Shown here: piece after piece, positions 1 to 63,657 of the stretch | Layout: every line of letters starts with the position of its first letter | Position numbering within the stretch: the first letter of the stretch is position 1 | NCBI RefSeq assembly: GCF_004010195.1 | Contig: NC_057710.1 | Span: 148,954,554-149,018,553 of the forward strand | Source: Chiloscyllium plagiosum | Lineage: Eukaryota | Reading direction: 5' to 3' | Length of the DNA stretch: 64,000 nucleotides | Notes under the pieces: model-generated | Database searches by the model: none | What the model was told of the DNA's origin: nothing | Seen by the model: only the letters and a program-made list of their open reading frames with translations | Program-made: the position numbers and the translations under genes

Positions 1-297
1 TCCGACCTGCCTAGCTCCTTTTCCACCTATCCACTCCACCCTCTCCTCCCTGACCTATCACCTTCATCTCCTCCCCCACTCACCCATTGTACTCTATGCT
101 ACTCTCTCCCCACGCCCACCCTCCCTTAGCTTATCTCTCCACGCTTCAGGCTCTCTGCCTTTATTCCTGATGAAGGGCTTTTGCCCGAAACGTCGATTTT
201 GCTGAAGCTCCTCGGATGCTGCCTGAACTGCTGTGTTCTTCCAGCACCATCGATCCAGAATCTGGTTTCCAGCATCTGCAGTCATTGTTTTTACCTC
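1..297 (+). mobile_element. Penelope-like element 3' end (pLTR) with hammerhead motif
   Basis: Pyrimidine-rich tract, then CTGATGAAGGGCTTTTGCCCGAAACGTCGA and a tail ending CAGTCATTGTTTTTACCT, also seen inverted at 44383-44435. Confidence 0.7.
167..196 (+). ncRNA. Minimal hammerhead ribozyme motif
   Basis: CUGAUGA-A-GGGC(UUUU)GCCC-GAAAC-GUC; core intact, palindromic ACGU in place of stem III. Confidence 0.7.
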
Positions 298-1039
298 ACA
301 GACAGTGAAGTAGTCTACTAGTTACATCTTTCCAACCTTAAGACTCATTTGTTCAAAGCCTGTCTTCATTAATCCATGATAATTATCCTCAACATCATGT
401 GTTCCTGAATTCTGCCCATTTTTTACATGGCACCTTATTGAATGTTTTCTGGAAATCCAAATTCACGAGAAGACTTATAAAGAAAAAAGAGGAGGGGAAG
501 GGGCAGGTTGGGCACTGCTGTCTCAGAGCTTATAATCCCACTTGGAAAATCTTTACCTCACTACATGCTGTGTGAAAATATTGATTCTCGTGGCACATTT
601 GCTTCTACTGCAACCTACCCCAATTCTGTACTCTATTGTCCTCTATCCTTTAAGGATTGGGAATAGATTCACCCTATCTATACAGACCAGGCCCCTCATG
701 ATTTTGACTGAATTTTTTTCAATCTATCCTGATCATCTTTGTGATAATCTCTTTTCTCGTTGTTTGTCTTATTCACTCTGGAGGTCTCCGTTCTCTCTCA
801 AACCTAAATGTTATTCTACCACATCTCTAAGATTTAGGAATGCAGCAAAATGGGAAACATGCATGAATTGGTCAGAAAGATGATACAAGAAAAGCATGGG
901 GTTCAGGTAAGGGAGAGCAAAGGGTGAAGCAGCTGTGGCCAGAAAGAAGAGATTAAGATTATTTATGGCAAGGGCAGACAAGACTAGTGAACATGAAACT
1001 ATTTTGACTCTTGTGAAAACCCCTCTCTATTTCATTCAC

Positions 1040-2560
1040 TAAAGTCCTTTAGGGAAAGATGTCTGTTGTCTTTAGCTAGTTTGGCCTACATTTCACCCAA
1101 TGCATATAAGGTTGTTGACTCTCACGTACCCGGTCAAAAGGTATTGCAAGGATCTCCTGAACCTGACTGTTATAGAACCATTAAAAAGGAATGAAACTGG
1201 GTAGATCACTTGGCATCCAGCTAAGCACCGGAAGGAGCAGTGGCACACCATGTCTTGTACTATAAAGACCCCCTTGCTAACAACATCTAGGGACTTATGC
1301 CAAAGATGACAGTCATATTCATGAAATTGTCAATTACTGATAAAGATAGATAATTACAGATACCTCCATTACAATCCCTGGAAATTTCAGTCAAAAGGAC
1401 TGACACATTAGAGGTGGTGACGAAGTACTGTATGATCATGAGGGAACTGATCCTGGAGACCTGAACATCAACTCTGAACCCTGTAATGTTTCAAGGTATC
1501 AGAGAAAACAATAGCAAGGCAAATTCCTCACCATCACCTGAAAAGTTCCCTCAGCTGTTGAGAGTATCCCTCTATACTGAATGTCACTTGAAAGCAATGA
1601 GGGTAACAGAATGTGCTCCACATGGAGGTTTTCAGTATTCATCACTAAGAGTAGTTCAACAGAACCACTACTGACAAAAGGTTACTGAATCCTGAAGCAC
1701 ACATCTTCTGTACTGGGCCTGCAGATAGTGATGAGGGAACCAAGAGGGAAAAAACTCTTACTTGACCTCATCTTCGCCAATTAACCTGTCCACAATACTG
1801 CTAGTAAGAATACTTGTGGAGAAGAAATCCTGCCTTCACAGTGAGATCCAGCATGCTGCATGGCACAATGAACAGTCCACGTTCAATTGCAACAAGATCT
1901 GGACAATATCCAGGCTTTGGCTGATAGGTGCCAAATAACACTCCCACGTCAAAAATGCCAGACTATGACCATCACCAATAAGAGACAGACAATCGAACCA
2001 TTGTCCCTTGGCATTCAATGGTGTTACTATCACTGAATCTTCCACTATCATCATCCTGGGGGTGATTATTGACCAGAAACTCAACTGGACTTACCACTTA
2101 AACACAGTGGCTACAAGAGCAAGTCAGAGGCTGGGAATATTGCAGTGAGTAACTCACATCCCTACTCCTCAAAGTCTATCCACCACTAACAAGGCACAAG
2201 TCAGGAATGTGATGGAATACTCTCCCACTTGCCTGGATGAGTGCTGCTGTAACACTCAACAAGCTTGACACCATCCAGGAGAAAGCAGCTTGCTTGATTG
2301 GTAGTATATCTACAAGCATCCGCTCCCTCAAAACTCATTCAAGTTCCCCTCCAGGCCACTCTCCATCCTGACCTGGAGATACATCGCTATTCCTTCACTG
2401 TCACAGGGTCAAAATCCTGGAATTCCCTCCCTAATGGCATTGTGGGTCAATCCACAGCAGGTGGACTGCAGCAGTTCACCTCCACCTTCTCAAGGGCAAC
2501 TAGGGATGACCAATAAATGCTGGTCAGCCAATAATACCAACATCCCACAAAATGAGCAAA
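1040..2560 (+). mobile_element. Degenerate Deu-type SINE piece followed by LINE (CR1/L2 group) fragments
   Basis: Decayed RT C-terminal sequence (ATCCTGGGGGTGATTATTGACCAGAAACTCAACTGG) and a 3' tail CTCAAGGGCAACTAGGGATG...ATAAATGCTGG recurring at ~10600, 25320, 52130, 60840. Confidence 0.6.
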
Positions 2561-2599
2561 ACAAAAAGGCAGAATAAATCAGAAGATAATGAAGACATG

Positions 2600-6120: not shown

Positions 6121-6270
6121 CTTTGGCTTCCAGTTCTTTGACCGATAACGCAGCAATTTTAGTGCACTTGTGTATTCAGCTTGCATTCTTCTTGCAGGAA
6201 CAAGGAAGTCTCCATCAGCTTTTGTGATAACAACTAAATCTGCCATCTCTATTATACCACGTTTAATACC
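6121..6270 (-). CDS. MMAA: MMAA coding exon 5 (last exon is outside the window)
   Basis: ctttag|GGT...AAG|gtgatg; [50 protein letters not shown]; 150 nt. Confidence 0.96.
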
Positions 6271-11165: not shown

Positions 11166-12710
11166 ATTATTTTGCTTGAATTCCAAAGTCACTAGCCAAA
11201 GTAAAAAGATTCTGCAGATCGCGGGACACTTTTTACTTGTGTCTTATGGCAGAGGTGCTTTTCTCAGAACTTTCAACAAGTTGATTACTGAAGAACAACT
11301 AGAGAGAGCAGAATCAAAAACAAAAACCACAGTGTAGTCCTGCAGCTTCCAAAGCCAAATTGTCTCTGCCCAAAAACCCAGTCAGATCCAGTTAACTCTG
11401 TTTACTTTTTTTTAATATTCTTTGCGATTGGTTAGCCAGCTCCAGTCCTCCCTTGATTGATCAAGTCAACATCCAACCTACTACCAGTTCCTGATTCAGT
11501 ACAAATGTATCATCCACACTATAAATCTGCATTATTTTTCCAGACCAATTCCCAAAAGCAAACATTAGCCTTTTGTTCTCTTCTTTTTAAAAAAGCTGCT
11601 GCTTAAAGTTTCAATTTCAACTCATTTCCAGACCTAAAAGAAACACAGATGGTCTGAATACATTGAACCCAAGAATATTTTTTTTAAAAACAATATGGCA
11701 GCTCCAAAATGGAAGCGTTTGGAACAATTCTACAAATTCTCCAGAAAAGCAATATGTATGGATCACTCAATAGAGCAGTGAATCATTCAACTTCAAGCTT
11801 TCTTAAAGTCATAACTAACTAGAACCTTAACTGGAGGAGACATATAAAAACAATGGCTACAAGCAAAGGTCAGAAGCTGAGAATTCTGTGACAAATAACT
11901 TGTCAAAGTTTGTGCGAAGATTTGTAGCTCAGGTGCTCGTTGTTGTGGTTCTGTTCGCCGAGCTGGGAATGTGTGTTGCAGACGTTTTGTCCCCTGTCTA
12001 GGCGACATCCTCAGTGCTTGGGAGTCTCCTGTGAAGCGCTTCTGTGACCTTTCCTCCGGCATTTGTAGCGGTTTGAATCTGCCGCTTCCAGTTGTCAGTT
12101 CCAGCTGTCCGCTGCAGTGGCCAGTATATTGGGTCCAGGTCAATGTGCTTGTTGATTGAATCAGTGGATGAGTGCCATGCCTCTAGGAATTCCCTGGCTG
12201 TTCTCTGTTTGGCTTGTCCTATAACCTCAACACCAAGGAGAGGGAAGCACTAAAAGCACTAAGAAACGATAAGAACATAATCATACTACCAGCAGACAAA
12301 GGCAGAATGACGGTCATCCTGGACAAAGCAGAGTACATTCAGAAAGCGCAACTACTTGCAGATACCAACACCTACCAAAAGAGGGAGTTTGACCCCACCC
12401 CACCACTCACCAATAGGATAAACAACACACTGAGGAACCTACAAAATAAAACAGACAGATAACCAGATTTGACCTACAGAGAATGAAACCTGAAAGCAAC
12501 AACATGCCCAGATTCCATGGACTACCTAAAGTGCACAAACCAGACATCCTGCTCAGACCCATCGTATCACTACCAGGGACACCATCACACAAACTGACTA
12601 AAGAACTACAGCAGAAACTGAAACACCTGATCAGCAGATCCAGACACTATACAGTCAACACAGGAATTCTTGGACATCATCAGAAATATACACATAGACA
12701 AGGAAGAAAC

Positions 12711-13278
12711 NNNNNNNNNNNNNNNNNNNNNNNNNNNNNNNNNNNNNNNNNNNNNNNNNNNNNNNNNNNNNNNNNNNNNNNNNNNNNNNNNNNNNNNNNN
12801 NNNNNNNNNNNNNNNNNNNNNNNNNNNNNNNNNNNNNNNNNNNNNNNNNNNNNNNNNNNNNNNNNNNNNNNNNNNNNNNNNNNNNNNNNNNNNNNNNNNN
12901 NNNNNNNNNNNNNNNNNNNNNNNNNNNNNNNNNNNNNNNNNNNNNNNNNNNNNNNNNNNNNNNNNNNNNNNNNNNNNNNNNNNNNNNNNNNNNNNNNNNN
13001 NNNNNNNNNNNNNNNNNNNNNNNNNNNNNNNNNNNNNNNNNNNNNNNNNNNNNNNNNNNNNNNNNNNNNNNNNNNNNNNNNNNNNNNNNNNNNNNNNNNN
13101 NNNNNNNNNNNNNNNNNNNNNNNNNNNNNNNNNNNNNNNNNNNNNNNNNNNNNNNNNNNNNNNNNNNNNNNNNNNNNNNNNNNNNNNNNNNNNNNNNNNN
13201 NNNNNNNNNNNNNNNNNNNNNNNNNNNNNNNNNNNNNNNNNNNNNNNNNNNNNNNNNNNNNNNNNNNNNNNNNNNNNN
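12711..13278. other. Assembly gap (N run)
   Basis: Run of N. Confidence 1.
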
Positions 13279-13774
13279 TCTGAACTGACAGCCAGACTAC
13301 TACGACCACTAGGACTCATAACAGCACACAAACCAACAGCCACTCTCAGACAACAATTCACCAGGACAAAGGACCCGATACCCAGCATTAGCAAAACCAA
13401 CGTAGTATACAAAATCCCATGTAAGGACTACATAGGACAAACAGGAAGACAGCTAACGATCCGCATCCATGAACACCAACTAGCCACGAAATGACACGAC
13501 CAGCTATCCTTAGTAGCCACACACTCAGATGACAAGCAACATGAGTTCGACTGGGACAACACTATTATTATAGGACAAGCCAAACAGAGAAAGCCAAGGG
13601 AATTCCTAGAGGCATGGCACTCATCCACAGATTCAATCAATAAGCACATCGACCTGGACCCAATATACCGGCCACTGCAGCGGACAGCTGGAACGGGCAA
13701 CCGGAAGCGGCAGATTCAAACCACTACAAATGCCGAAGGAAAGATCACAGAAGCGCTTCACAGGAGACTCCCAA

Positions 13775-13814
13775 GCACTGAGGATGTCACCTAGACAGGG
13801 GACGAAACGTCTGC
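13775..13814 (+). ncRNA. Minimal hammerhead ribozyme motif in PLE pLTR
   Basis: GCA-CUGAGGA-U-GUCACCU(AGAC)AGGGGAC-GAAAC-GUC-UGC: stem I GCA/UGC, stem II, intact core. Confidence 0.75.
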
Positions 13815-14170
13815 AACACAAATTCCCAGCTCGGCGAACAGAACCACAATAATAACTTGTCAAAGCCTGTCCATCATCCCCAAGGCATACATCAGAAGCG
13901 TGAATGAATTCATCCCACCTGCCTAGGTTACGACTCACTGGATCGTAATTTGAACCCCGCTAATCTCAGAGTTGAAAGAAGATAGGCTAATCAAAAAGAA
14001 ATGTCCTCGGAGTATTGAGTTGTCATACACATAATTGCAAGGATATACTGATGTCCTTTTTTTTGTCTTTGGTAATACCCACATGTAAATAACACAAAGT
14101 TGTTCTTCAAAAACTGGCTAAGAAACAATAGTGCTGGTATGATTACATGTGGAGGTTTTCCTACCGTCTC

Positions 14171-14480
14171 GGAGAAAGTGAGGACTGCAGATCAGAGTCA
14201 AGAGTGTGGTGTTGGAAAAGCACAGCAGGTCAGGCAGCATCCGAGGAGCAGGTGAATTGACGTTTCGAGCATATGCCCTTCATCAGGGATGAGGCTTGTG
14301 GGCTGTTGTAGAGAGAGGAGGAGAACTTCTTCAAGGCAGGCATCCTTGGAAGAGGCTTTGCACGAAGGTTGAAATAAACTAGGAGTAAGTGAGGACTGCA
14401 GATGCTGGAGGTCAGAATCGACAGTGTGCTGCTGGAAAAGCACAGCAGCATCCTTGGAAAGGACTTTGCAGTAGGGTTGA
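14171..14480 (-). mobile_element. Tandem PLE pLTR fragments with hammerhead motif (14259-14286)
   Basis: Two copies of GGAG(A/T)AAGTGAGGACTGCAGAT...GGAAAAGCACAGCAG; minus-strand CTGATGAAGGGCATATGCTCGAAACGTC. Confidence 0.7.
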
Positions 14481-15819
14481 GGTATCCTTGGAACATGTGA
14501 TGCAGTTCTATAAAACATGTTAATGAAGTCCTGGCCATGTAAAATAACTATTTATTGATATCTATGGTTTCTGTATTTTATACACCCTGCTGTAGGAACT
14601 CCACATGCTTCTTACAATATCTCTTTACAATATTCCTGGCAATACCACCATTTGATGAACAAGCAAAACCTAAGTCCATTCTTCATCCACAAGTCTTTGA
14701 GAATGTCTCCACTTCCTCACTATGGAACCCTTTTAGCCTCAGCTTTAGGGTGAGCAATCTTTCCTAACTTAATTAACTCTGGATCTACTTCTGGAGCTTC
14801 AATAGATGAAAGAATGTCCAAAATCTCTTGAATATCCTTAAACAGAGCATCTGCTTGTGGCATTGTGACCTCGAGAGACTTTGTTTAGCCACTGCTCTGG
14901 TCACAACATATGATAAAAAATACCCAGAATCTGTTAGTATTTCTAGACTCAAATGGGTTTTCCATGATTATAGCTAAAGGTATGATTTCTACTCCTGCCA
15001 GGCCATCACTTCATAGTAAATCAATTCCAACTGTAGGCATTTTCTTTACAACCCTGATTACTACTAGCATAGAAAAGAAGTCATCATCCACTGTACAACA
15101 GAACTGGGATATATCTCTGCCTAGCCTATTCCATTTACCAATATTTTAAATTTCAACAAATTCTCTGGAAGAAAAACTAAATCCTTCTCCAGAAAGAATC
15201 AGAGTTAACTCATCAAGGGATGCAGAGGCATGTACTTGAAGTCTTCCTTTGAAGAAAAGGGACCAAGAGCCCTCTAACTTTGTTAGAGTCCACTGGATTG
15301 TTTGCCATGAATTAAGCCCTCCTACTGTGGAATCATACTAAATATAACATTTATTTTTAGGTGAACAGAGTACCCAAAATTACCTGACTTTCAGACCAAG
15401 GTTTCTGCACTAAACAACAAAATGTTATTTATTAGAATTTGCTTATTTGTCAGAAATAATTAGACTATAGCTATCGGGTATCGGGTATATCGGGTATCTG
15501 GTATAGCTATCGAGACAAACTATCGGGTATATAACAATACCAACTAAAACACTAATCGCCTTATAAACTTACCCTTACACATACAAAGAGAAAAATAATT
15601 AGGGAAAATAGACTACTGCTGAGGTTAAAAAACTGGAAAGTGAGTTGTGGTGTTTGCTTCCCAACTCTGATGTTAGATAATCCTATTTCAGCTAACTATA
15701 CCCTTGGTGTTCAGTTGTCTCTTTCTGGAAGCTCCCACTGGTTTGTAAGGAGTACAGAATGACTGATTCACTTGAAAAATGTCAGATTATTCAATTCAAA
15801 AAGTCACAGCTCACAGGAA

Positions 15820-17185: not shown

Positions 17186-17994
17186 GGTAACTGGCTTGCT
17201 TCAATTTTAAACTGTTGCAGCGAACAGCTTCTGCGTAGAGAACAACAGTACAACCTTCTATATCTTTCTGTGTGTCTACGCCTCTAACTTGTTTCCAGCC
17301 CCAAATTGCTCAGTTCACGAAGAACCCAGCCATGTTCACTTGTGACCAAGTCCTTGACTCCTCATTGTCTGCACATTGCAGGAATCCAGTCACAAAAAGT
17401 TCATAACAGGTACGTAATTTCTTGCTGTGAAATTATGCAGCCATCCCAACAAATTCACGGTTTTTAAACAATTAGTTGTCCTTGAAGACCACAGTTTTTA
17501 AATACACAAAAATAAAATGACTCTTCTTTGCACCTACATGAGTGTTGCCTCAAAACAAGCAGCATGACACCTTCCAGAGCAAACTAGCCTATTTGATTAG
17601 CACTATATCCATTCCTCTACAATGCTGTAGATTGCACCATCTACAAGATACCATGCAGAACTTGCCAAGATTCCCATGGCAGCACTTTTAAAAGCCCACA
17701 TCTATCACCTAGAGCAAGGACAGAAGCCATATGAACCGCCAACTACATGTTAGCCTCAGAGTGATGCAGCATTTTGATGGCATTTATGCAATGTCACTGC
17801 ATCAAACTAATTACTCTGTCCATCTCATCCTCTCTAAGCAACTGGTCAACATTAGCACCCCAGTTCTGCAGAATCACTTATGTAGCCAATGAGGATCAGA
17901 AAACAAATATTCAAACCTCCAACTTTTACTCCCATTAAAGGCAGTTCATAAATACAAGTTCAGATTATTGATGGAAGGCATGAAATAATCTTGG

Positions 17995-18114
17995 AGAAAG
18001 TGAATATTGCAGATCTTGGAGATCAGAGTCAATAAGTGTGGAGCTGGAAAAGCACAGCAGGTCAGGCAGCATTTGAGGAGGAGGAGGATTTTGGGCATAA
18101 GCCCTTCATCAGGG
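17995..18114 (-). mobile_element. Miniature PLE pLTR insertion
   Basis: Decayed hammerhead plus tail; TSD ATGAAATAATC(T/C)TGG at 17980-17994 and 18115-18129. Confidence 0.78.
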
Positions 18115-18171
18115 ATGAAATAATCCTGGGCAGGCACTATGATTATCCCAGGAGTGACTTTAAAAAAGTTA

Positions 18172-27073: not shown

Positions 27074-27166
27074 ACAAAAACATAAATTGCTGGAAAAGCT
27101 CAGCAGGTCTGGCACTATATGTGGAGAGAAATCAGGTAACGTTTTGGGTTCAATGACCCTTCCTCA
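27074..27166 (-). mobile_element. Miniature PLE pLTR of another family, decayed hammerhead
   Basis: Minus CTGAGGAAGGGTCATTGAACCCAAAACGTTA; imperfect TSD (13/15) at 27059-27073 and 27167-27181. Confidence 0.6.
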
Positions 27167-36284: not shown

Positions 36285-36627
36285 TGAGTCGAAAAGGGTG
36301 GAGCTAGAAAAGCACAGCAGGTCAGACAGCATCCGAGGAGGAGAGTCAACGTTTCGGGCATCAAGAATAGCAAAGTGCAAGTAACAGAGAACCACAGGGA
36401 TTTGTGTTAAGGCCCCATTTACTTAAAACATGTGACTTTGATAAGGAAAGTGGAGTACACAAAAATAAATGGAAAAGCAAATGGTAAGGATGACTCAGTC
36501 TGCGGAGTTAAGCAAATGAGCAAAACTGAAAAATGTGTTGCTGGAAAAGCGCAGCAGGTCAGGCAGCATCCGAGGAGCAGGAGAATCGACGTTTCGGGGA
36601 AGAAGGGCTTATGCCCGAAATGTCGAT
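36285..36627. mobile_element. Two short PLE pLTR fragments (36285-36360; inverted 36530-36627)
   Basis: AAAAGC(A/G)CAGCAGGTCAG...CGTTTCGGG repeats; the second flips into GAAGAAGGGCTTATGCCCGAAATGTCGAT. Confidence 0.7.
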
Positions 36628-36629
36628 GA

Positions 36630-38872
36630 ATCTGGGTCGTGAATCTGAGATATTCTTTACTGCAAAGTGCTTTAAAAGCTGGATCATTAATAAGACAGGG
36701 TATGTGACTGAAATGACAGTATGGGAACACTTTGGGTATAATGATCACAATCAATTCTATTTGTTTTAAAACAGTGATGGAGAAGAATAAGCCTTCAATA
36801 AAAATTAAAGATTTTAACGAGTAAGGCAATTTAATGGCATGAGACAAGCACATTCAAAAGTTGACTGGAGTAGACTGTTTGATGGCTGATAAGGGGGAGT
36901 CTTTCAAAAGTATGGTAACGAGAGTTCAGAGTTATTATGTTCCTGTTAGAGTGAAAGGTAAGGCTAGTTGGATTAGAGAACAATGGACGAATAAAGTATT
37001 GAAATTCTAGTCAAGAATAAAAGATTAGATATAGACAGCGATATTCAAATGAGTTTCTTAGAACAGTAGAAAGAGTGTAGGGGAATTCTTAAGAGGGAGA
37101 TCAGGAAGGCAAAGAGAGGATATGATGTAGCCTTTGCAAAGAAGGTTAAGGATAATCCAATAAGATTCAGTAAGTACATTAACAGCGAGCGAGCAGAGAG
37201 GGAGTTGGCCCTCAAAGATCAAAGAGGTCACCTTTGTGTTGAACCTCAGAAGATGGGAGAGATAGTAAATGAATATTTCACATGTGTTTTTACTGCGGAG
37301 AAAGAAATGGAGGCTAGAAACAGTTCACATTACAGAAGTGGCAAAAGCTAGAGTTTTAGAAAATTTAAAAGTGGATAAATCTCAAGGACCGAATCTAGAG
37401 TATCCCAGATATTGTAGGAAATTAAGGAAGAAATTACAGAGCCCTTGCAGAAATATTTGTATTATCTATAACTGAGGGTGAGGTGTTGGAGAACTAGAGA
37501 GTGGCTAATGTTGTGCTTTTAAGCATGAAAGGAGAAGCCTGGGAACTATGGACCTGTGAACTTGACATCGGTGTTGGGTAGGTATTGGTGGCAATTCTGA
37601 AAGATAGGATTTATGCGCATTTGGAGAGGCAAGGAATGATTACGGACAGTCAACATGGTTTTGAGAGAGGGAAATTACATCACACAAACTTAACTGAATT
37701 TTTTTTAAGTAACCAAGATAATGGATGAGGGCAGAGAAATAGGCATTATTTACTTGGACTTTAGTAAAGCATTTGACAAGGTTCTGTATGGTAGACTAAT
37801 TAGTAAAGTTAGATCACATGGGATTCAGGGTGAGGTTGCCAACTGGATACAAAATTGGCTTAATGGCAGGAAACAGGGTGGCGGTGAAGGCCTGTGATCA
37901 GCCGTATTCTACAGGGAACAGTGCTGGGTCCACTTTTGTTTGTCATTCATATAAATGATTTAGATGAGAATATAGAAAGCATGGTTAGTAAGTCTGAAGA
38001 TGATATCAAAATTGGTGGTATAATCGTCAATGAAGGTAGTTATTTAAGATTACAAAGACATCTTGATCAGTTAGGTCAATGAGCTGAAAAGTAGCAGATA
38101 GAGTTTAATTTGGACAAATACAAGGTACTGCATTTTGGTAAACCAAACAAGGACAGGACTTATACAATTAAAAGTAGAGCCTTGGGAACGCTGTAGAACA
38201 GACAGACCTACAGGTTCAGGTCCATAATTCTTTGAAGTTTCCATCACATATAGATAGGGCAGTTAAGAACTGGAGTAGCACACCTGCCTTCCTCACTCAG
38301 ATCTTGGGGTATAGGAGTTAGGATGTTATGTTGAGGTTGTACAGGACATTGGTGAGGTCTCCTCTGGAGTACTGTGTCCAGTTCTGGTCACCCTGTTCTA
38401 GGAAGAATATTAAGTTGGAGAGAGTTCAGAACATATTTACTGGGATGTTACTGGGATTGGGAGAGTCTGAGTTATAAGGAGAGCTGGGACTTTTTTCACT
38501 GGTGCTTAGGAAGTTGAGGGGTGACCTCAACAGGTTTATAAAATCATGAAAGGTATAGATAAAGTGAATGGTAGCTGTCTTTTCCCTTGGCTGAGGGATT
38601 TCAAGACTAGGGTCATGTTTTTAAGGCGAGAGGAAAAAGATTTTAAAAATACATAAGGAGCATCTTTTTACACAGAGTGGTTTGTAAGTGGAATGAATTT
38701 CCAGAGAAATTGGTGGATGTGGCAGTTATAAATTTTTAAAAGCATTTGGATAAAGTAAATGAGTAAGGAATGTTTGGAGGGATATGGGCCAAGCACAGGC
38801 AGGTGGGACTGTTTAGTTTGGGATTATGATGAGCATGGACTGGTTGGGGTGAAGGGTCTGTTTCTATGACTA
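36630..38872 (+). mobile_element. CR1 LINE ORF2 (RT) with 3' end
   Basis: KSQGP, QHGF, LDFSKAFDKV, QGTVLGPLLFVIHINDLD...SKSEDD, LEYCVQFWSP. Confidence 0.9.
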
Positions 38873-39916: not shown

Positions 39917-40590
39917 CCATCTTCAATGAGTCTCCGAATGAAGCACTGGTGGTGTAGCCCACTTTCTATTTATACGTTTGAGTTTCCTAGGGTTGGTGAT
40001 ATCAGTTCCTGGGGTGACATCATTTCCTATGGTGATGTTGCTTTTTCCAGTTCTTTTTCTCAGGGGATGGTAAATGGGATCCAAGTCAATATGTTTGTTG
40101 ATAGAGTTCTGGTTGGAATGCCATGCTTCTAGGAATTCTCGTGTGTGTCTCTATTTGGTTTGTCCTAGGATGGATATGTTGTCCCAGTGGTGTCCTTCTT
40201 TATCCGTATGTAAGGATACTAGTGAGAGTGGGTCATGTCTTATTGTGGCTAGTTGATGTTCACGTATCCTGGTGGCTAGTTTTCTGCCTGTTTGTCCAAT
40301 GTAGTGTTTGTTGCAAGGTATTTTGTAAATGACATTAGCTTTGCTTGTTGTCTGTGTAGGGTCTTTCAAGTTCATTAACTGCTGTTTTAGTGTGTTGGTG
40401 GGTTTGTGGGCTACCATGATGCCAAGAAGTCTGAGTAGTCGAGGAGTCTTTTCTGAGATGTCTTTGATGTAGGGGAGAGTGGCTAGGATTTCTAGACATG
40501 TTGTGTCTGCTTGTACGTACCTTCCAGCTCAGAGAACAAACCTACATCCAGAACCTCACCCTGAGCTACAAATCTTCTCAAAGCTCGCTA
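39917..40590 (-). mobile_element. PLE GIY-YIG fragment with short inverted terminal tail
   Basis: VIYKIPCNKHYIGQTGRKLATRIREHQ on minus; 40520-40590 is a plus-strand 3' terminus. Confidence 0.82.
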
Positions 40591-40659: not shown

Positions 40660-41416
40660 ATAAGTCTGCCAACCGAGTGGAGGGATTTGTTCTCAGATGT
40701 TTCGTCACCATACTAGGTAACATCATCAGTGAGTCTCTGATGAAGCGTTGGTGTTCTGTCCTGCTTGCTATTTGTGTGTCTTGGTCTGATGTGGTGGGTG
40801 ATATCACTTCCAGTTCTGAGGGGTTGGTAAATGGGATTCAAACCTATGTTTGTTAATGGAGTTCTGGTATGAATGCCAGGCCTCCAGGAATTCCCATGCA
40901 TGTCTTTGTTTAGTCTGTCCCAGGAAGGATGTATTGTCCCAGTTGAACTGGTGTCCCTCTTTGTCTGAGTGTATGGATACCAGTGATAGTTGGTCATGTT
41001 TTTAGTGGCTAGCCACCAGGATACATGAGTACCAACTGGCCACCAAAAGACATGACCAATTATCACTGGCATCCATACACTCAGACAAAGAGGGACACCA
41101 GTTCAACTGGGACAATACATCCATCCTGGGACAGGCTAAACAAAAACATGCATGGGAATTCCAAGAGGCCTGACATTCAAACCGGGACTCCATTTACCAA
41201 CATCTCAGAAAAAGAACCGGAAGTGATATCACCCACCACAACAGACCAAGACACATAAATAACAAGTGGAACAGAACACCAACGCTTCATTGGTGTCTCA
41301 CTGATGATATTACCAAGTATGGTGACAAACTGTCCGAGAACAAATCCCCCAGTTCAGCAAGCAAACTTACAACCTAAACCACAACCTAAGCTACACATCT
41401 CAAAACAAAAACACAA
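40660..41416. mobile_element. Inverted-pair PLE, 14-bp TSD
   Basis: Arms invert near 41010; AGCATCTT(C/A)ATGTT at 40646-40659 and 41417-41430; hammerhead motif minus 40696-40729, decayed partner at 41301. Confidence 0.82.
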
Positions 41417-43188
41417 AGCATCTTAATGTTTCCTTTTCAGAAAAGAATTCAATTCCTTCAAATGCCTTACTTGAACATGCCTACTCAGTATTCTCTGGAA
41501 ATGATTTTAAGATTCCAACCACTTGCTGCACGAGATTGTAAAAGCAGAAATGAAGTAAGCAATTACAATGAAACATATCCATTTGTTCTCAATCCTTCCT
41601 CAAATAGGAATAGTTTTCCCTATCCATTTTGTCTAAATACCTTACTTTTTTGAATAGTCAGAGTTTTAAAGTATGGAAAAAAGGACGTTCAGTACATATG
41701 TCTATGCTGCTTAGCAAGCAAGAATCTGCTCCATTTTCTAACACTTGGCCATGCCCTGAATTCTATGGCATTTCAGATATTCACCTAAACATTTCACAAG
41801 TGTTCCCACCTATGCCATCCTTTCTGGCAATGAATTCCAAATAATGCTCATCTTCTAGGTGAATTTTTTTCTTCCTCAAAAGCCCCCTCAACATTCTGGC
41901 CCTCACATTAAATCTATGCACCTGGATACTGATCCTTCAGAAAAAGGAAGGCTTCTTCCCATCAGTGTCTCTCATAATTTTCAACACTTCAATCTCAGCC
42001 TTATCTGTTCCAAGGAAAACAAGCACTGTCTATCTACTCTCTCTTCATAGTTGTGACACTACAGCCAAGGTAACATCCTGGTTTACCTGCTCTGCACCCT
42101 CACAACATGTTTTATATACATCTTTAATCTCCTCTGAACATTCTGCACCATGGAAAACAGCCCAAACGTCTGCCATCTTACGTAATTGAAGTTCATCACC
42201 CCAGAATCATTGCTGTTAAGGCTGCAATTATGATCATTACCACTGGATGGAGCAATGAACATGCACACACAGGGATGGAACTGCACTGCAACGAGAATAC
42301 CCAGCAACAGCTACTGATCACAAACATGGGAATATATTGGTCCTTTCACCCAGGGACTCCAGCAAGATAAATGTGTATGTAATGACAAAATGCATAACCT
42401 GGGATCAGATAAATGATACTATTTTATAAGTCGAACTGCAGAACTGCCACATTCTACATAAAAGGTAACCTAGGTAGCACCATTCCTTTACATGATCCAA
42501 TTTGTACTATGTTCTTATTATAGAAACTGGAGAAATAGAAATACAGTGCCATATGTTTAAAAAATCTAAAATAAAGGTATGGTAGTTTGCACTTGTACCA
42601 ATGTCAACAGCAGCATACGTGCACATTAACACCAATGCTTATTACAACCAGCTGACATCAACAGCCCCATCTGCATGTGTCAGTGGTCACTTCAGCAGTC
42701 AAAGTAACAGCTCCACTTTGTGACTCTTTTCTGCATTCTAATGACTTCACATCTTTCCTGAAGTGCGATGCTAGGAGCTGGACACAACATGCTGATTAAG
42801 GTCAAACCAGTATTTTATACATTGTCAGCCTTATCACATCTTTATGACCCTTTTAATGAAGTGCAGAATGCTGAAGCATTTTCAATGCACTCTGATACAT
42901 TATCAAACGACCCAGGTTTCTCTATTTCCGTATGCCCTTTAGAATTGTACTCTGTACTTTACATCCACATTCCTCTGACCAAAATGCATCACTTAACACT
43001 TCTGTGCATTAAACTTTATCTGCCACTGGGTTCACACATTTCACCAGTCAATGTCCTTTTAAAGTTTTAATAATACTTCTTACTGTTCATAATCCTTCCA
43101 ACTGTCATATCTGCAAATTTTGAAATTATGCTATGTACACCAGTTATCTAGATCATTAAACGTATAGGAAGAACAAGGGCCACTAGTA

Positions 43189-43282
43189 TTCCTGATGAAG
43201 GGCTTATGCCTGAAACGTCGACTCTCCTGCTCCTCAGATGCTGCCGACCTGCTGTGCTTTTCCAACACCACACTTTTTGACA
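43189..43282 (+). mobile_element. Miniature PLE pLTR starting at a hammerhead motif with intact core (43192-43221)
   Basis: CTGATGAAGGGCTTATGCCTGAAACGTCGA followed by the family 3' sequence. Confidence 0.72.
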
Positions 43283-43736
43283 CTGTTGCCAGTCATTCAG
43301 CCAATTTTGTATCCGTGACACTACTGTCCTGTTTATTTCAGGACCATAAAGATATAGAATGTTGACCATTTGGCTCACTGAGTCTGATCTGTCATTCATG
43401 GCTGATACGAGAATCCTCAATTCTACTTTTCTGTCTTTTCCTTAATCCTCGCTTCCCTTCCTGACTAAAATCTCAGTTTTGACACTACTGAAATATTCTA
43501 TCTTGACAGCTCTACTTAGTAAAGAATTCCACAGATTCACAAATCTCAAGAAATTCCTCTTCACTTTTATCTCAATTGGGTGACTCTTTACACGGGTTAT
43601 GCTCTCTGGGTTTAGATTCTCCCTCAAAAAGGAGAAAACAACCTCAGTATCTATCTTATCAAGCAAACAAAGAATCTTATATATTTCAGTAAGGTCTTTC
43701 ATCCTTCTAAACTCAAATGAGTATAAGCGCACATAG

Positions 43737-43906
43737 AAGAAAGTGAGGACTGCAGATGCTGGAGATCAGAATCGAAAAGTAAGGCGCTGGAAAAGTACAG
43801 CAGGTCAGGCAGTATCTGAGGAGCAGGAGAGTCAACGTTTCATGTATTAGGAATGATGAGGGGCTTATGCTCAAAACATCAACTCTCCTGCTCCTCGGAT
43901 GCTGCC
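43737..43906. mobile_element. Miniature inverted-pair PLE
   Basis: Tail-bearing left arm on minus, short right arm on plus; degenerate TSD TAAGCGC-ACATAG / TAAGCCCAACATAG. Confidence 0.72.
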
Positions 43907-43920
43907 TAAGCCCAACATAG

Positions 43921-44385: not shown

Positions 44386-44538
44386 TAAAAACAATGACTG
44401 CAGATGCTGGAAACCAGATTCTGGATTAGTGGTGCTAAAGGAATAAAGTGGATCAGGAATAAAGGATGAAGGGCTTTTGCCCGAAACGTCGAATTCGCTG
44501 CTCCTTGGATGCTGCGCTCTTCCAGCACCGCTAATCCA
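44386..44538. mobile_element. Miniature inverted-pair PLE, 13-bp TSD
   Basis: GAAGCTATGGAGG at 44373-44385 and 44539-44551; arms match the 160-297 family. Confidence 0.82.
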
Positions 44539-45752: not shown

Positions 45753-46115
45753 CATGATTTGGAGATGCCGGTTAAAAATCACACAACACCAGGTTATAGT
45801 CCAACAGGTTTAATTGGAAGCACACCAGCTTTCGGAGCGTCGCTCCTTCATCAGGGCTCAATCCTAACAGAATTTATAGCAAAAATTTAGTGTGATGTAA
45901 CTGAAACTATACATGGAAAAATTGATTGTCTGTTAAGCCTTTCATCTGTTAGAATACAGTGATAGTTTCACTTCTTTCATGTGTAAATCACAAAACCTTT
46001 TTTTAAAAAAGTTGCATTTTCGGGTTAGCTGTTAACAATGGTGATAGCTAGACAATATGTTGAACGTGTCGGTCCCGTGTGTTCTGTCTCTACCATGATG
46101 TTTAGATTGATTCTA
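45753..46115 (-). mobile_element. PLE pLTR of a further family with hammerhead motif (45826-45854)
   Basis: Minus CTGATGAAGGAGCGACGCTCCGAAAGCTG; boundaries approximate. Confidence 0.62.
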
Positions 46116-50692: not shown

Positions 50693-50860
<168 letters not shown>

Positions 50861-52674: not shown

Positions 52675-52840
52675 GGGCAGGAGAATCGATGTTTCGGGCA
52701 TAAGCCCTTCTTCAGGAATCCTGAAGGGCTTATGCCCAAAACCTCGATTCTCCTGCTCCTCGGATGCTGCCTGGCCTGCTGTGTTTTTCCAGCACATTTT
52801 TCAACTCTGTTCTCCAGCATCTGCAGTCCTCACTTTCTCC
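52675..52840. mobile_element. Miniature inverted-pair PLE, 15-bp TSD
   Basis: CCTTT(C/T)ATTTCCTTG at 52660-52674 and 52839-52853; two back-to-back hammerhead motifs around 52719. Confidence 0.82.
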
Positions 52841-53565
52841 TTTTATTTCCTTGCCTAACAAGAATCTACCTCGACCTTAAAAATTTTCAAGGACTGTTGC
52901 TCACTCCAGCATTCAATCTAGTAAATCTCCCCTGAACCACCTCCAATATGTGCACATCCTTTCTTAAATAAGGAAACCGAAACTGAACATAACATCTGAA
53001 TTTATTGTTGTTAAAATGTGTGGCTATTTTGATATTGGAATTTATTTGGGTTGTAGTCCTAAACTGAGCCTTTGCCACCCTTCTGGGAAACCTCTTAAGG
53101 ATCTCCTGTCAGAACTGAAAACAGAAACAGGTGTATTCCACTAGAGGACTTACTTTTGACATCTTCTGAATGTATTATTTTTGAAAAGATCCGAGTGGTA
53201 ACTGCATGTGACTAATGACAACCATTTGTATGTGTAGTAACGTCAAACTAAAAGTCACCTTGCACATTTTTTCTTTTATTCTGAGAATCAACAAATATTT
53301 GCCTAATGTCATTTCTCTCCCCAAAGTTAATCTCAGATTTTTTTATTTTTATAAAGTCATAGAGATCTACAGCACAGAAAAAGGCCCTACGGCCCATCAC
53401 ATCCATGTTGGTCAAAAACAACTTCCTAGCTATTCTAAACAAATGTTCATTAACTGATCTATGTTGAGTTGTTTAGAAGAATAAATACTTTTATATTCAT
53501 ACATCAACCAGCCCTGATTAGTCTTACATATCTGTTGAACCAGTTTCAAAATAAATCAAAAAATT

Positions 53566-55312
53566 GAGAGAAGATTTGTAGCTCGGGTGTTCGTTGTTAT
53601 GGTTCTGTTTGCCGAGCTGGGAATTTGTGTTGCAGACGTTTCGTCCCCTGTCTAGGTGACATCCTCAGTGCTTGGGAGCCTCCTGTGAAGCGCTTCTGTG
53701 ATGTTTCCTCTGGCATTTATAGTGGTTTGTCTCTGTCGCTTCCGGTTGTCAGTTCCAGCTGTCCGCTGCAGCGGCCGGTATATTGGGTCCAGGTCGATGT
53801 GTTTGTTGATTGAATCTGTGGATGAGTGCCATGCCTCTAGGAATTCCCTGACTGTCCTATAATAGTAGTGTTGTCCCAGTCGAACTCAGGTTGCTTGCCA
53901 TCTGAATGTATGGCTACTAAGGATAGCTGGTCGTGTCATTTCGTGGCTAGTTGGTGTTCATGGATATGGATCGTTACCTGTCTTTCTGTTTGCCCTATGC
54001 AGTGTTTTGTGCAGTCCTTGCATGGGATTTTATATACTCTGCTGGTTTTGTTCATGCTGGGTATCGGGTCCTTTGTCCTGGTGAGCTGTTGTCTGAGAGT
54101 GGCTGTTGGTTTGTGTGCTGTTATAAGTCCCAGTGGTCGTAGTAGTCTAGCTGTCAGTTCAGAAATGTTCTTGATGTATGGTAACGTGGCTAGTCCTTGG
54201 GTTGTGGCATGTCCTCATTCCATTGTCTTTCCCTTAGGCATCTGTTGATGAAATTGCGGAGGTATCCATTTTTGGCGGATACATTGTAGAGGTGTTCTTC
54301 TTCCTCTTTTTGCAGTTCTGATGTGCTGCAGTGTGTTGTGGCCCTTTTGAACAGTGTCTTGATGCAACTTCTTGTGTGTGTATTGGGGTGGTTGCTTTCG
54401 TACTTTAGGACTTGATCTGTGTGCGTGGCTTTCCTGTATACCTTTGTGGTGAATTCTCCGTTCGGTGTTCTCTGTACCATCACGTCTAGGAATGGGAGTT
54501 GGTTGTCCTTTTCTTCCTCTCTAGTGAATCAGATTCTTGTGAGTGTGGCGTTGATGATCCGGTGTGTGTTTTCTATTTGTCTTTTTAATGATTACAAAGG
54601 TGTCATCTAGATATCTGACCCAGAGTTTGGGTTGAATGTGCAGTAAGACTGTTTGTTCTAATCTTCACTAGAGAGGAAGAAAAGGACAACCAACTCCCAT
54701 TCCTAGACGTGATGGTACAGAGAACACCGAATGGAGAATTCACCACAAAGACTACTCCGACCACTAGGACTGATAACAGCACACAAACCAACAGCCACTC
54801 TCAGACAACTCACCTGGACAAAGGACCCGATACCCAGCATGAGCAAAACCAACGTAGTATACAAAATCCCATGCAAGGACTGCACAAAACACTACATAGG
54901 ACAAACAGGAAGACAGCTAACGATCCGTATCCATGAACACCAACTAGCCACGAAACAACACGACCAGCTATCCTTAGTAGCCACACACACGGATGACAAG
55001 CAACATGAGTTCGACTGGGACAACACTACTATTATAGGACAAGCCAAACAGAGAGCAGTCAGGGAATTCCTAGAGGCATGGCACTCATCCACTGATTCAA
55101 TCAACAAACACATCGACCTGGACCCAATATACCGGCCACTGCAGCGGACAGCTGGAACTGACAACCGGAAGCGGCAGAGACAAACCACTGGAAACCAGAG
55201 GAAACACCACAGAAGCACTTCACAGGAGGCTCCCAAGCACTGAGGATGTCACCTAGACAGGGGACGAAACATCTGCAACACAAATTCCCGGCTTGGCGAA
55301 CAGAACCACAAC
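53566..55312. mobile_element. Inverted-pair PLE (RT C-terminus + GIY-YIG), 15-bp TSD
   Basis: Minus arm 53566-~54660 (TKVYRKATHTDQVL..ESNHP), plus arm ~54662-55312 (VVYKIPCKDCTKHYIGQTGR); ATAAATCAAAA(A/G)ATT at 53551-53565 and 55313-55327. Confidence 0.92.
53632..53671 (-). ncRNA. Minimal hammerhead ribozyme motif, sense to SMAD1
   Basis: GCA-CUGAGGA-U-GUCACCUAGACAGGGGAC-GAAAC-GUC-UGC, intact core. Confidence 0.72.
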
Positions 55313-56520: not shown

Positions 56521-57951
56521 GTTGCAAGGTTTGTAGCTCAGGTTGAGGTTTAGGGTGTAGGTTTGCTCGCTGAGCTGTAGGTTTGATATCCAAACGTTTC
56601 ATTACCTGGCTAGGTAACATCATCAGTGGCGACCTCAAGTAAAGCGAAGCTGTTGTCTCCTGCTTTCTATTTATGTTTGTCCTGGATGGGGTTCCTGGGG
56701 TTTGTGGTGATGTCATTTCCTGTTCGTTTTCTGAGGGGTTGATAGATGGCATCTAGATCTATGTGTTTGTTTATGGCGTTGTGGTTGGAGTGCCAGGCCT
56801 CTAGGAATTCTTTGGCAGGTCTTTGCTTAGCCTGTCCCAGGATAGATGTGTTTTCCCAGTCGAAATGGTGGGTTTTTTTTCATCCGTGTGTAGGGCTACG
56901 AGGGAGAGAGGGTCGTGTCTTTTTGTGATGAGCTGGTGTTCACGTATCCTGGTGGCTAACTTTCTTCTTGTTTGTCCTACGTAGTGTTTGTGGCAGTCCT
57001 TGAATCGAATTTTGTAGATGACGTTGGTTTTGTCCATGGGTTGTACTGGGTCTTTTTAAGTTTGTTAGTTTTTGTTTGGGAGTGTTGGTGGGTTTGTGTG
57101 CTACTAGGATTCCGAGGGGTCTTAGTAGTCTGGCTCTCATTTCTGAAACTTCTTTGATGTACGGTAAGGTGGTTAGGGTTTCTGGCTGTGTTTGGTCTGC
57201 TTGTCGTGGTTTGTTCTTGAGGAATCTGCGCACTGTACTTTTTGAGTATCCGTATTCAAGAAGAACGGATACTCAAAAAAATACAGTCCACAGATTCCTC
57301 CAGAACAAACCACGACAAGCAGACCAAACACAGCCAGAAACCCTAACCACCTTACCATACATCAAAGAAGTTTAAGAAATGACAGCCAGACTACTAAGAC
57401 CCCTCGGAATCCTAGTAGCACACAAACCCACCAACACTCTCAAACAAAAACTAACAAACTTAAAAAGACCCAGTACAACCCATGGACAAAACCAACATCA
57501 TCTACAAAATTCGATTCAAAGACTGCCACAAATACTACGTAGGACAAACAGGAAGAAAGTTGGCCACCAGAATACGTGAACACCTGCTCGCCACAAAAAG
57601 ACATGACCCCCTCTCCCTTGTAGCCCTACACATGGATGGAAAAAACCACCATTTTGACTGGGACAGGCTAAGCAAAGATATGCCAGAGAATTCCTAGAGG
57701 CCTGGCACTCCAACCACAAACGCCATAAACAAACACATAGATCTAGATGCCATCTATCAACCCCTCAGAAAACGAACAGGAAATGACATCACCACAAACC
57801 CCAGGAACCCCATCCAGGACAAACATATAAATAGAAAGCAGGAGACAACAGCTTCGCTTCACTTGGAGGTCGCCACTGATGATGTTACCTAGCCAGGTAA
57901 TGAAACGTCTGGATATCAAACCTACAGCTCAGCGAGCAAACCTAAATTCTA
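56521..57951. mobile_element. Near-perfect ~1.4-kb palindromic PLE, 14-bp TSD
   Basis: ~700-bp arms inverting at ~57258; GIY-YIG in both; AATGTTCAATGATT at 56507-56520 and 57952-57965; tail on the left arm only. Confidence 0.93.
57873..57912 (+). ncRNA. Minimal hammerhead ribozyme motif (partner on minus at 56593-56626)
   Basis: CCA-CUGAUGA-U-GUUACCU(AGCC)AGGUAAU-GAAAC-GUC-UGG. Confidence 0.75.
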
Positions 57952-60700: not shown

Positions 60701-62559
60701 AAATTTAATGCAAATAAGGTACACACTCAATAACATGTTCTGGAGTTGTTTGGGCAAAATCCTGGAACACTGATAGCACTATGGGTGTACATCATGTGGT
60801 CTACAGAAGTTCAAGATGGTGGCATAACACCACTGTCTCAAGAGCAATTAGGAATAGGCATGAAATGCTGACCTCATTAGATATACCTACACTTCAGACA
60901 AGAATGTAACAAAAACAAATGTAATATGTGATTTTAGAGAAATCTATAATTAATCTTCACTAAGGTCATCCCCATTCTAGATGCTAGGTTTTTATTGCAA
61001 CTCTCCTTCGAAAGAGAAATCACTGCAATCATTATCCTCTTGTGAAGCAATCAGTACAGAAGTGGCTGGGGTGAGGGGAGAGGAGGAGGAAGAGACCTCA
61101 TGCATGGTCACAAACCTTCTTATAAATATATAGTTATCTCGACCACTTCATGGGACAAATACAGGTCTCGACTTATCAATTCCATAATTCATGTGCTTTA
61201 GAGGTATTAACCTGCTTTTAGTGGTACATATTTGCGTTAAATACAAGATAAATAAAAACCTGATTGAACAAATGTTTTGGAGTTAATTATGTTTACAACG
61301 TAATAGTGTTAGTGTTACAAGGTCAGAAGCAGAAATGTACAACAACAAATGATCCACCTGAGATTTTAATGGAGACAGAAGGTTTACCTTTTCCTCAATT
61401 AAAACAGTTAAAACACTGATACTGTTCCTAAATGAAAAGCAGGCAGTAGTTCAGATTGCAAAAGGAACACAAGTGATACCTCACAGCGTTTAGTGAGGAG
61501 GCTATTTTTTTCGGATACACAAGATGATTTGCATGATTTAGAGAAATTTTGTCCAAAAGTTGTCAACTCAGATGATCAATTATAGTGAACAGCAAGGAGG
61601 ACACAATGGCAGACAAGGCAGATACAATTTCATGCGGACAACAGATTGGCAAGAAAAATATATGGAATAGACATATACACTGAACTGCAAGATATTTCAG
61701 AACGAACTGTTCAGAAAGCTAGTGCTTGGGATGAATGCGTTAAATGATGTGGCTTGTAAAAATGAAAATCATGAAAATTTATTGGGAATGGTTAAGAGAT
61801 GCTTGTTAATTAAGTACATATAGGCAGAGGGCACTGACTGCATTGTCACTTTAGAACATAAAAAAAATGGGGACAAGGGATCAATTTGGCAAGATGAGAT
61901 ATATTGGAGACAAGAGAGGAACAGAATAAATGGGAAATGAGCATAAGAGAACACATCCTGCCAGTTGTCTTAAATCAGGCACTGATTGATTGTCTTTGAT
62001 CAATCAACCTTCCTGGATTATTCCTCCTCTCCAACCAGCTGACACAGGTTGATCCATCAGGTACAATGCATGACAACAGTCCCACTTGCAGGCGGGCTCA
62101 TCCCAACAGCAGCAAAGGACCTTAAATGACCCTGACTGGTCATAAGGGCCTTGACTAGCGGCAGGACAGGAAGGTCAACCATGGACCTTACCAGCTCAGA
62201 TTTAATTCTCGTACACATAAGTTGGTGACAGAGTTTGGGAATGCCGCCACTCCACCTGTGCACATTCCTACCTCCATGCTCACCTGCTGTGCGCAGGAGG
62301 TTCTGCTTATTTTGACAATATCACTGCCTCCACAATATTTTCTTCCATCTCCCCTCAGTTCCCTCTCTCGTTGATTGACTGGTCTATTCAATAAAGCACA
62401 AAGCAGTGCTACCAATGAGGGGAAATAGTAAAAGCAGAACAGCTACAATGTTAACCTAGTCACCATGAGGAAGAGAGCTGTCCAGAAGCAGTTAAAGCCT
62501 GATATAAGGACTAAGAATGGACATAAGGATATACAGGAAAATACATAAGGTAAAGCAAC

Positions 62560-62770
62560 CATAGGCCTTACCAGACCATAGAGCAGCTCTTTTATCAGAG
62601 ACAGGTGACATGTAGTGGTTTAATTGGAGGGTCAACATGCCTCAGATGAAGGGAGTGGTTGAGAAGAAAAATGCTTCATGGCAACCTCAGCCAGTATATG
62701 AAATAAACCCAGACTGTTGGCATCATTCTGCATTGCAAACTGGCCATCCAGGCAACTGAGCTAGCCAACA
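62560..62770 (-). mobile_element. tRNA-derived SINE
   Basis: Minus head GTTGGCTAGCTCAGTTGCCTGGATGG; homolog at 9222. Confidence 0.55.
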
Positions 62771-63454
62771 TCAGAGAAAGTACATACGGATATGAGAAAG
62801 ACAGCATCGGGGTGAATGACAGGTTGGAGTCCAATTTTTTAATATTAATGCACAGCATATAAAAATTAATTGAATTGCAATCTCAAATACATCCATGCAG
62901 ATATAAAATTTGACTATTAGAGGCATAACTGCAAAATAGTAATAACTAGGAGTAAAATATTTCTTAAATTGGAAGTGGAGGAAGTGTAGCTTATTAATTA
63001 AATATATTTTTACAATAATAGTAGCAGAACAATCAGCACGGACACATGGTTAGAACTGAGGAATAAGTTGGGACTGAATAATTCAATGGGATTTGGTTGC
63101 AGGGTCTTTGATAGCAGCGAAGTGGTAGAATGTTTTACTGCATAAACACATGGCTAAAAGAGTGGTGTGGGGAAAAAGGGGTCTCTTTTCATGGGGCACT
63201 GGCATCAGTATTGGAACAGAAGGATCTGTACTGCTGTGAATGTCTCCACCCAAAACGAGCTGGCCAATGTTCTAGCGAAAAAGAGTAAATAGGCTGGTCA
63301 ACAGACTTTAAACTAGAAAGGTGAGAGGCAACATCCCCCAGCAGAAATCAAAGCAGAAGGTTAACATCTAGAGGGGTGGATTCAACTGCGTGGAAAAATA
63401 TGAAAGGAATGACAGGGAATGAGAACTCAGGAGAGGTTATTAAAGTCTCCAACA

Positions 63455-63657
63455 CAGAGTCGAGAGTGTAGTGCTAGAAAGACACAACAGGTTAGGCAGC
63501 ATCTGAGGAGGAGAATTTATGTTTTGGGCATAAGCCCTTCATCGGGAATGCTGAAACATCAATTCTCATACTCCTCGGATGCTGCCTGACCTGCTGTGTC
63601 TTTCCAGACCAACACACTCTACTCTGATCTCCAACATCTGCTGTCCTCACTTTCTCC
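63455..63657. mobile_element. Miniature inverted-pair PLE
   Basis: Arms invert at ~63548 within decayed hammerhead motifs; tail on the right arm; partial TSD TCTCCAA. Confidence 0.75.

Follow-up and report, generated by a model that had tools for sequence, protein, structure and literature searches.

The window analysed here is a 64,000-base stretch of the shark Chiloscyllium plagiosum (assembly GCF_004010195.1, contig NC_057710.1, forward strand, 148,954,554 to 149,018,553), with two N gaps and 62,485 called bases. It overlaps the host gene MMAA and holds 18 repeat insertions, most bearing the hammerhead ribozyme motif and all identified by self-alignment and reading by eye, which together occupy 8,599 called bases (13.8%); an earlier description from the letters alone (the sequence-only reading) had counted about 17. 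Very probably, these are minimal hammerheads in the terminal repeats of several retrotransposon families, of which B, C and D are Penelope-like elements (PLEs) and A, A2, E and F likely so, the 18 copies being neither working ribozymes nor a mini-element in its own right but 5'-truncated products of insertion that are now dead. Both assembly gaps (12711-13278 and 32346-33292) sit inside insertions that are inverted pairs. The insertions are listed in the table.

MMAA, the gene for the methylmalonic aciduria type A GTPase, occupies the minus strand. Its exon at 44840-45310 (exon frame 44711-45310) matches human MMAA with an E value of 5e-22, and more exon-like frames at ~29350-29490, ~26330-26470, ~7850-7930 and ~6100-6270, found through peptide motifs, presumably belong to the same gene. 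Given these exon positions, the insertions from 11909 to 44538 are intronic. No sense-strand hammerhead copy in the MMAA introns is fully consensus and the single intact copy there (13778) is antisense, numbers too small for a test of bias. A CpG island covers 44700-45700 at the exon (CpG observed/expected 0.87). On the strand of the exon frame, ~440 bases upstream of it, stands the family E copy; the CpG observed/expected ratio of this copy is 0.65, compared with a window average of 0.29.

Table. Hammerhead-bearing insertions in the window (RT, reverse transcriptase; EN, endonuclease)
Interval	Strand	Family and form	Hammerhead	Tail, flanks and other features
1..297	+	A2 terminal repeat	C3 at 167, C17 at 194, consensus-like	has tail; continues past the left edge of the window
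11909..13850	both	B head-to-head pair	minus arm (11909-12224): 12014, G12>A; plus arm: 13778-13811, intact	tail on minus arm, none on plus arm; RT and EN remnants and N gap in plus arm; perfect 15-bp target duplication 11894-11908/13851-13865
14171..14490	-	A partial tandem	14286-14259, 12 core bases, stem I broken	second tail 14448-14371
17991..18120	-	A single-arm stub	core decayed	tail present; target duplication ~15-19 bp, 2 mismatches
27074..27172	-	F stub	GGGU/ACCC stem, G12>A	flanked by a 9-bp repeat; 3' part akin to family A
32132..33531	both	A long head-to-head pair	both cores defective	tail on right arm only; perfect 16-bp target duplication; centre hidden by N gap
36286..36370	-	A single-arm stub	5' half of core lost	no tail
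36527..36630	both	A miniature head-to-head pair	arms joined inside hammerhead	no tail on either arm
39918..40589	both	G pair, relative of C/D	minus arm ends in decayed core	EN remnant in minus arm; plus arm tail region only
40660..41416	both	D head-to-head pair	40729 (minus, palindrome broken), 41301 (plus, decayed)	EN remnants; tail on right arm; 14-bp target duplication, one mismatch (by eye)
43187..43285	+	A single-arm stub	12 core bases, closed by G-U; starts 4 bases before C3	no tail
43735..43909	both	A miniature head-to-head pair	defective cores	left-arm tail
44386..44538	both	A2 miniature head-to-head pair		left-arm tail; perfect 13-bp target duplication
45753..46099	-	E copy	GGAGC/GCUCC stem, AGCU, G at position 17	approximate boundaries; sole copy in window
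52675..52838	both	A miniature head-to-head pair		right-arm tail; 15-bp target duplication, one mismatch
53564..55312	both	B head-to-head pair	53668 (minus, intact), 55240 (plus, palindrome broken)	RT/EN remnants; left-arm tail; target duplication
56521..57951	both	C 1.4-kb palindrome	56626, 57876, both G-U at 10.1-11.1	EN remnants; left-arm tail; perfect 14-bp target duplication
63453..63652	both	A miniature head-to-head pair	defective cores	right-arm tail

Hammerhead motifs: stems, covariation and decay

Both strands were scanned for CUGANGA, stem II and GAAA followed by CGU or GCU, with ten dinucleotide shuffles as control. Eight perfect motifs occur in the window versus none in the shuffles; up to one mismatch the numbers are 14 versus 0-1, and up to two mismatches 17 versus 0-4. 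Hammerheads at 167-194, 13778-13811 and 57876-57909 lie where the sequence-only reading had placed them, and all five stem II types that it listed are present (GGGC/GCCC, GUCACCU/AGGGGAC, GUUACCU/AGGUAAU, GGGU/ACCC, GGAGC/GCUCC); family D adds a sixth, GUUACC/GGUGAC, at 40729. The six types are spread over A/A2, B, C, D, E and F, and the core of family G is decayed. In the motifs, a type I core, CUGANGA...GAAA..UH, is accompanied by stems I and II, the latter preceded by an extra base. The four-base palindrome described earlier as replacing stem III stands as ACGU in A, A2, B, C and F and as AGCU in E, but is broken in both D arms.

The stems themselves are not all regular. GUUACCU/AGGUAAU (family C) closes with G-U in place of the conserved G10.1-C11.1 pair, the family B stem has an A-G mismatch in four of four arms, and the family F and E types are each known from one copy whose core is defective.

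Covariation, also asserted from the letters alone, holds in one respect and fails in another. An alignment of 12 motif rows (11 distinct) was evaluated over three stem I pairs and three stem II pairs: 87.9% of cells are paired, versus 57% in shuffles (0/500 reach the observed value) and 25-54% when the alignment is slid, and both sides change in five of the six pairs. A pair-count measure of covariation, however, is not above shuffles (370/500). Because the sequences tested also served to derive the structure, and because the families are related (72-85% alike among B, C, D and G), the control is lenient and the outcome supportive rather than a formal test.

Rfam returns no hammerhead match in the window at E<=1; its only matches are microRNA-like hairpins from the palindromes and one weak long non-coding RNA match. 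This is not disqualifying, since the papers cited below define the motifs by descriptor and not by Rfam. Energy folds of monomer and dimer pair the core boxes with each other or give other alternative folds; the active fold is not modelled by them, and they are left out of the argument.

Decay is widespread among the 26 arms that overlap the core. All 12 core bases are kept in ten of them, and the 12 core bases together with G10.1-C11.1 and the palindrome in four; one of these four, 14286, has lost the pair closing stem I, and three arms (167, 13778 and 53668) look fully consensus. Seven of the 26 were scored by eye, none of these with a full core. Many core defects affect the CG dinucleotides of CGAAACG and are of the C>T or G>A kind, the pattern to be expected if methylated cytosines decay. 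In most reads placed on the 14286 copy, the G of stem I and the GCCC arm are restored (positions 14258 and 14268); stems are thus intact in the majority of family A.

Head-to-tail tandem arrays of the hammerhead motif are absent from the window, the only partial tandem (14171-14490) carrying one core. For this reason, and because the two hammerheads of a pair are on opposite strands, cis-dimers cannot arise from any insertion here. The sequence-only reading had proposed cleavage assays on copies from this stretch; with most cores decayed, paired arms on opposite strands and no tandem arrays, activity of these copies is unsupported, and one assay candidate, 57873-57912, is without G10.1-C11.1. 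As a rule, the motifs here are decayed and probably inert.

Penelope-like coding sequence, abundance and RNA

With database relatives as queries, tblastn recovers remnants of RT and GIY-YIG EN coding sequence, placed directly upstream of the terminal repeats in B, C, D and G. None is intact, and the "coding copies" of the sequence-only reading turn out to be broken or truncated throughout. The family B frame (query 54755-55240) is 92% identical to an RT protein of Chiloscyllium punctatum and 84% to Hemiscyllium, identities that by themselves point to a bamboo shark as the probable host. A 705-residue relative matches RVT_1 (E 3e-8) and, weakly and below the cut-off, the Pfam GIY-YIG entry (E 0.008); a Y[IV]GQT motif is present. 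No zinc finger occurs in the RT-EN linker of seven of eight database relatives, the seven with a readable linker. The Penelope/Poseidon clade has no linker zinc finger, unlike Neptune and Nematis (Craig et al. 2021, PMC8557442), and its absence here therefore points to that clade. In B, C and D, an ATG at the junction of core and stem II opens a similar frame that runs through the tail, the ATG being mutated in one D arm. On these sequence grounds, families B, C and D are classed as Penelope-like, of Penelope/Poseidon type, and for them the adjacent remnants bear out the earlier placement of minimal type I hammerheads in the pseudo-long terminal repeats of PLEs. Shark host-gene isoforms P0003, P0010, P0015, P0018 and P0019, as annotated, contain pieces of family B-type endonuclease, which suggests exonisation or annotation read-through.

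The searches described below gave no link from A, A2, E and F to an RT/GIY-YIG open reading frame (ORF). The PLE identity of these four, whose short repeats the sequence-only reading took for PLE termini, is therefore argued by insertion architecture only, and they are likely Penelope-like. Counting towards PLE identity, family A arms extend at least 123-166 bases upstream, one 1.4-kb pair has an N gap at its centre, and contigs from other loci run from the family A tail into an extension at 14370-14306. This multi-copy extension beyond the tail, seen in the partial tandem at 14370-14303, may be the start of the family A element body. On the minus strand, 14303-14370 plus 14449-14490 holds a frame that opens with an ATG and the residues MPALKKFSSSL; the family A ORF may start here, although the frame matched no protein. 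Protein searches with a frame of 48 residues spanning the family A tail and extension likewise gave no match; a single frame of the sequence upstream of family E, followed through its stops, matched no protein; family A DNA patterns had 0 matches in metagenome contigs and prokaryote genomes, collections not expected to contain shark DNA; and Pfam gave nothing on the short ORFs of the window.

The motifs are numerous. Ten full-core motifs in the called bases correspond to 160 per megabase (Mb) in this window, and in run X2 contig depth, summed over A and B motifs, exceeds the median depth of the flanks by a factor of ~1.3-1.4e5, a ratio that is not a true copy number. The very large genome-wide number anticipated earlier is plausible in the light of this density and of a summed depth of ~1e5 times the flank, and the two figures suggest 1e5 or more motifs per genome. 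Summed depth drops ~20-fold just upstream of the family A core, partly from subfamily differences there.

In run X21 (~2% of a single-cell polyadenylated RNA run), 3,808 reads fall on 13279-14520, on both strands, and none on most of the unique flank; the RNA reads therefore come from other copies. Family B RNA runs ~6:1 in the likely sense direction. No pile-up of read starts or ends is seen among these reads, a weak test by which cleavage is neither shown nor excluded.

Insertion architecture and 5' ends

Head-to-head inverted pairs account for 11 of the 18 insertions. A tail of ~35 bases stands on exactly one arm in ten of the eleven, on neither arm in one and on both in none (p about 0.005 under independence, calculated by hand). 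Within a pair, the arms differ by 4-10% and have different 3' ends. Flanking duplications scoring at least 12 were found at seven of 18 intervals (17 insertions, one tested twice) versus 0/150 random intervals, where the maximum was 11; five of the seven measure 13-16 bp with 0-1 mismatch, and two 19 bp with 2 mismatches. The combination of inverted truncated copy, one-sided tail and target duplication is found in A, A2, B, C and D and partly in G; E and F are single arms.

Length separates the families. All short insertions belong to A, A2 or F, and all eight B, C and D arms extend ~250 bases or more. The starts of 19 A-type arms (16 aligned, plus three used as references) were placed relative to C3: nine fall at -6 to +4, four at +14 to +20, two at +55 to +58 and four further upstream, and none of the 19 begins at the cleavage site (+28). 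By scan statistic, clustering of this strength arises in 0/200,000 cases over a 211-base range (p<5e-6) and in 640/200,000 over a 77-base range (0.003). Since no start coincides with the cleavage site and the starts cluster at the front edge, the templates copied were likely uncleaved RNA, matching in vitro data on the Poseidon element PAc. The ~100-bp "minis" are likely truncated element ends, that is, 5'-truncated insertion products.

The sequence around the start cluster is also of note. The initiator consensus YYANWYY is matched, with its A at -4, in three of four long A-type arms, against a background of 1.2% per position; the fourth is off by one base, which most reads restore (place 14288). 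Transcription starting at the A at -4 would explain the cluster. A 3' splice-site origin of the clustered starts was considered and rejected, as the stubs share no upstream exon. Three minus arms (36361, 43843 and 44457) appear to begin just before the core and are missing either some of stem II or what follows it, which would suit skipping of the hairpin during copying or its later deletion.

Other repeats share the window. A ~300-bp repeat resembling a short interspersed element (SINE), presumably akin to the shark HE1 SINE, occurs in three copies (22558-22881, 43922-44194 and 59101-59392), one of which adjoins the 43735-43909 pair. Older repeats like long interspersed elements, resembling the CR1 type, lie at 1873-2522, 24683-25352, 27658-28312, 38320-38868, 60110-60677 and 63660-63895, and include an endonuclease-like frame adjoining the 63453-63652 pair. 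A perfect 46-bp tandem duplication at 47078-47175 is unrelated to the hammerheads.

Proposed mechanism and comparison with known systems

A route to such dead, truncated insertions can be proposed from published PAc biochemistry. The GIY-YIG domain of the element would nick both target strands 13-16 bases apart. Each 3' end would then prime reverse transcription on uncleaved element RNA, from one far and one near start site that would bound the ~35-base tail. The expected product is the arrangement observed: two arms head to head, bounded by a target duplication, only one of them with a tail. Family A arms, which mostly stop at the front edge of the hammerhead, would do so probably because the copied RNA begins there. 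Decay of the cores, seen often at the CG dinucleotides, would come afterwards. Any real cleavage would be confined to RNA of an active parent element, in dimeric form or assisted by the protein that the element encodes.

Several points weigh against this reading. Its mechanism is taken over from a Poseidon element of a lizard. Strong duplications were not found by script in ten of the 17 insertions tested, one pair is without a tail, and one tail-less arm adjoins another repeat. Neither the window nor protein and DNA searches yielded an ORF for A, A2, E and F. Head-to-head junctions have also been explained differently, by self-priming on antisense RNA (Arkhipova et al. 2013, PMC3846280).

A broader joint reading may be sketched, though it is doubtful. 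The genome would record 1e5-1e6 Penelope insertion events; family A RNA would start at an initiator placed 4 bases before the ribozyme, and reverse transcription primed internally at the first terminal repeat would run off the 5' end and leave stubs of 100-130 bases. A dimeric protein with two uncleaved RNAs, perhaps paired via the palindrome, would prime one target strand at each of the two start sites, giving exactly one tail per pair. The hammerhead would thus mainly pair templates and be cut only afterwards.

It is unlikely that the 100-130 bp copies instead propagate on their own as a non-autonomous family of SINE-like or retrozyme-like kind, with PLE proteins mobilising them in trans. 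Short A-type insertions do outnumber long ones and their 5' ends cluster, but stub starts, 3' ends and junctions vary from copy to copy, and long arms with the same terminal sequence exist (167, 32222 and 33411). The fall in summed depth upstream of the family A core would suit such a family, except that it is partly due to the subfamily differences noted there. According to a 2026 preprint, non-LTR (long terminal repeat) retrozymes stem from PLE termini and occur in one chondrichthyan genome (Li, Clavereau and Pollet, bioRxiv 10.64898/2026.07.22.740005); against this stands the lack of any tandem hammerhead array in the window.

A role for self-cleavage is very improbable, both in generating the template's 5' end, so that the stubs are copies of cleaved RNA, and in cutting host transcripts through active genomic motifs. 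The stubs retain the whole ribozyme and no arm begins at the cleavage site. Cores and stems are conserved and covary across families, as this alternative would expect, but only three of 26 arms look fully consensus, and the arms of a pair are on opposite strands. Both repeat strands do occur in polyadenylated RNA, with family B mostly in the likely sense direction; that bias could stem from oligo-dT priming on the A-rich sense strand, and the weak read-end test gave no pile-up. Published monomers are inactive (Cervera and De la Pena 2014, PMC4209133), and PAc cleavage needs protein and is dispensable for insertion (Frangieh et al. 2024, PMC11167929). That the motifs are chance matches or the palindromes assembly artefacts, as N gaps at the centre of two large pairs and 0-4 shuffled motifs at two mismatches might hint, has next to no probability and is already contradicted by the target duplications and the asymmetry of the arms (4-10% divergence, different 3' ends), as well as by the 14 versus 0-1 motifs at one mismatch.

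The favoured reading, dead 5'-truncated PLE insertions, adds a case to a class already known, and its value lies in the numbers. With perhaps hundreds of thousands of motifs, one vertebrate genome is a large natural collection in which to study how inverted, one-tailed PLE insertions come about and what purpose the hammerhead serves. Stub starts at the front edge of the ribozyme and not at the cut site argue for copying of uncleaved RNA, as for PAc in vitro. In the literature searched, as far as it was available, there is no shark-specific description of PLE hammerheads, and the supplements of PMC4209133 and the 2026 preprint might cover chondrichthyan motifs.

Compared with known systems, the insertions are further copies of a published PLE architecture, ordinary in kind and unusual only in density. 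The minimal hammerheads of metazoan PLEs share the type I core without helix III, the palindrome at 15.2-16.2, the extra base before stem II, G10.1-C11.1 and a short helix I; they too occur as several covarying families per genome, mostly as single motifs in truncated copies, with some paired on opposite strands at distances of 100-700 bp (Cervera and De la Pena 2014, PMC4209133). The density of full-core motifs in this one shark window would far exceed the 4,000 reported for coelacanth and 9,000 for Xenopus in that paper, although counting rules differ. PAc, from Anolis carolinensis, likewise joins RT to a C-terminal GIY-YIG domain, has its start codon at the beginning of stem II and two 3' ends bounding the tail, and nicks and extends both strands on an uncleaved template (Frangieh et al. 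2024, PMC11167929); unlike PAc, the shark copies are probably dead, and the one-tail-per-pair rule and the 13-16 bp duplications are read from genomic copies alone. Canonical PLEs with an endonuclease (EN+) resemble them in 5' truncation, an inverted truncated copy, a 30-40 bp tail at one end, a terminal repeat with the first codons and a target duplication (Craig et al. 2021, PMC8557442; Arkhipova et al. 2013, PMC3846280), and the ATG-led frame through the terminal repeat in B, C and D recalls Adineta elements (PMC3846280). In contrast to what these papers describe, duplications measure 8-10 bp in Adineta and 13-16 bp here, and many shark units have shrunk to 100-200 bp, their starts gathering at the ribozyme's front edge. 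Non-LTR retrozymes are also non-coding, carry a type I hammerhead and derive from PLE termini; theirs, however, stand in head-to-tail tandem arrays, an arrangement that sets them apart from the copies in this window (bioRxiv 10.64898/2026.07.22.740005).

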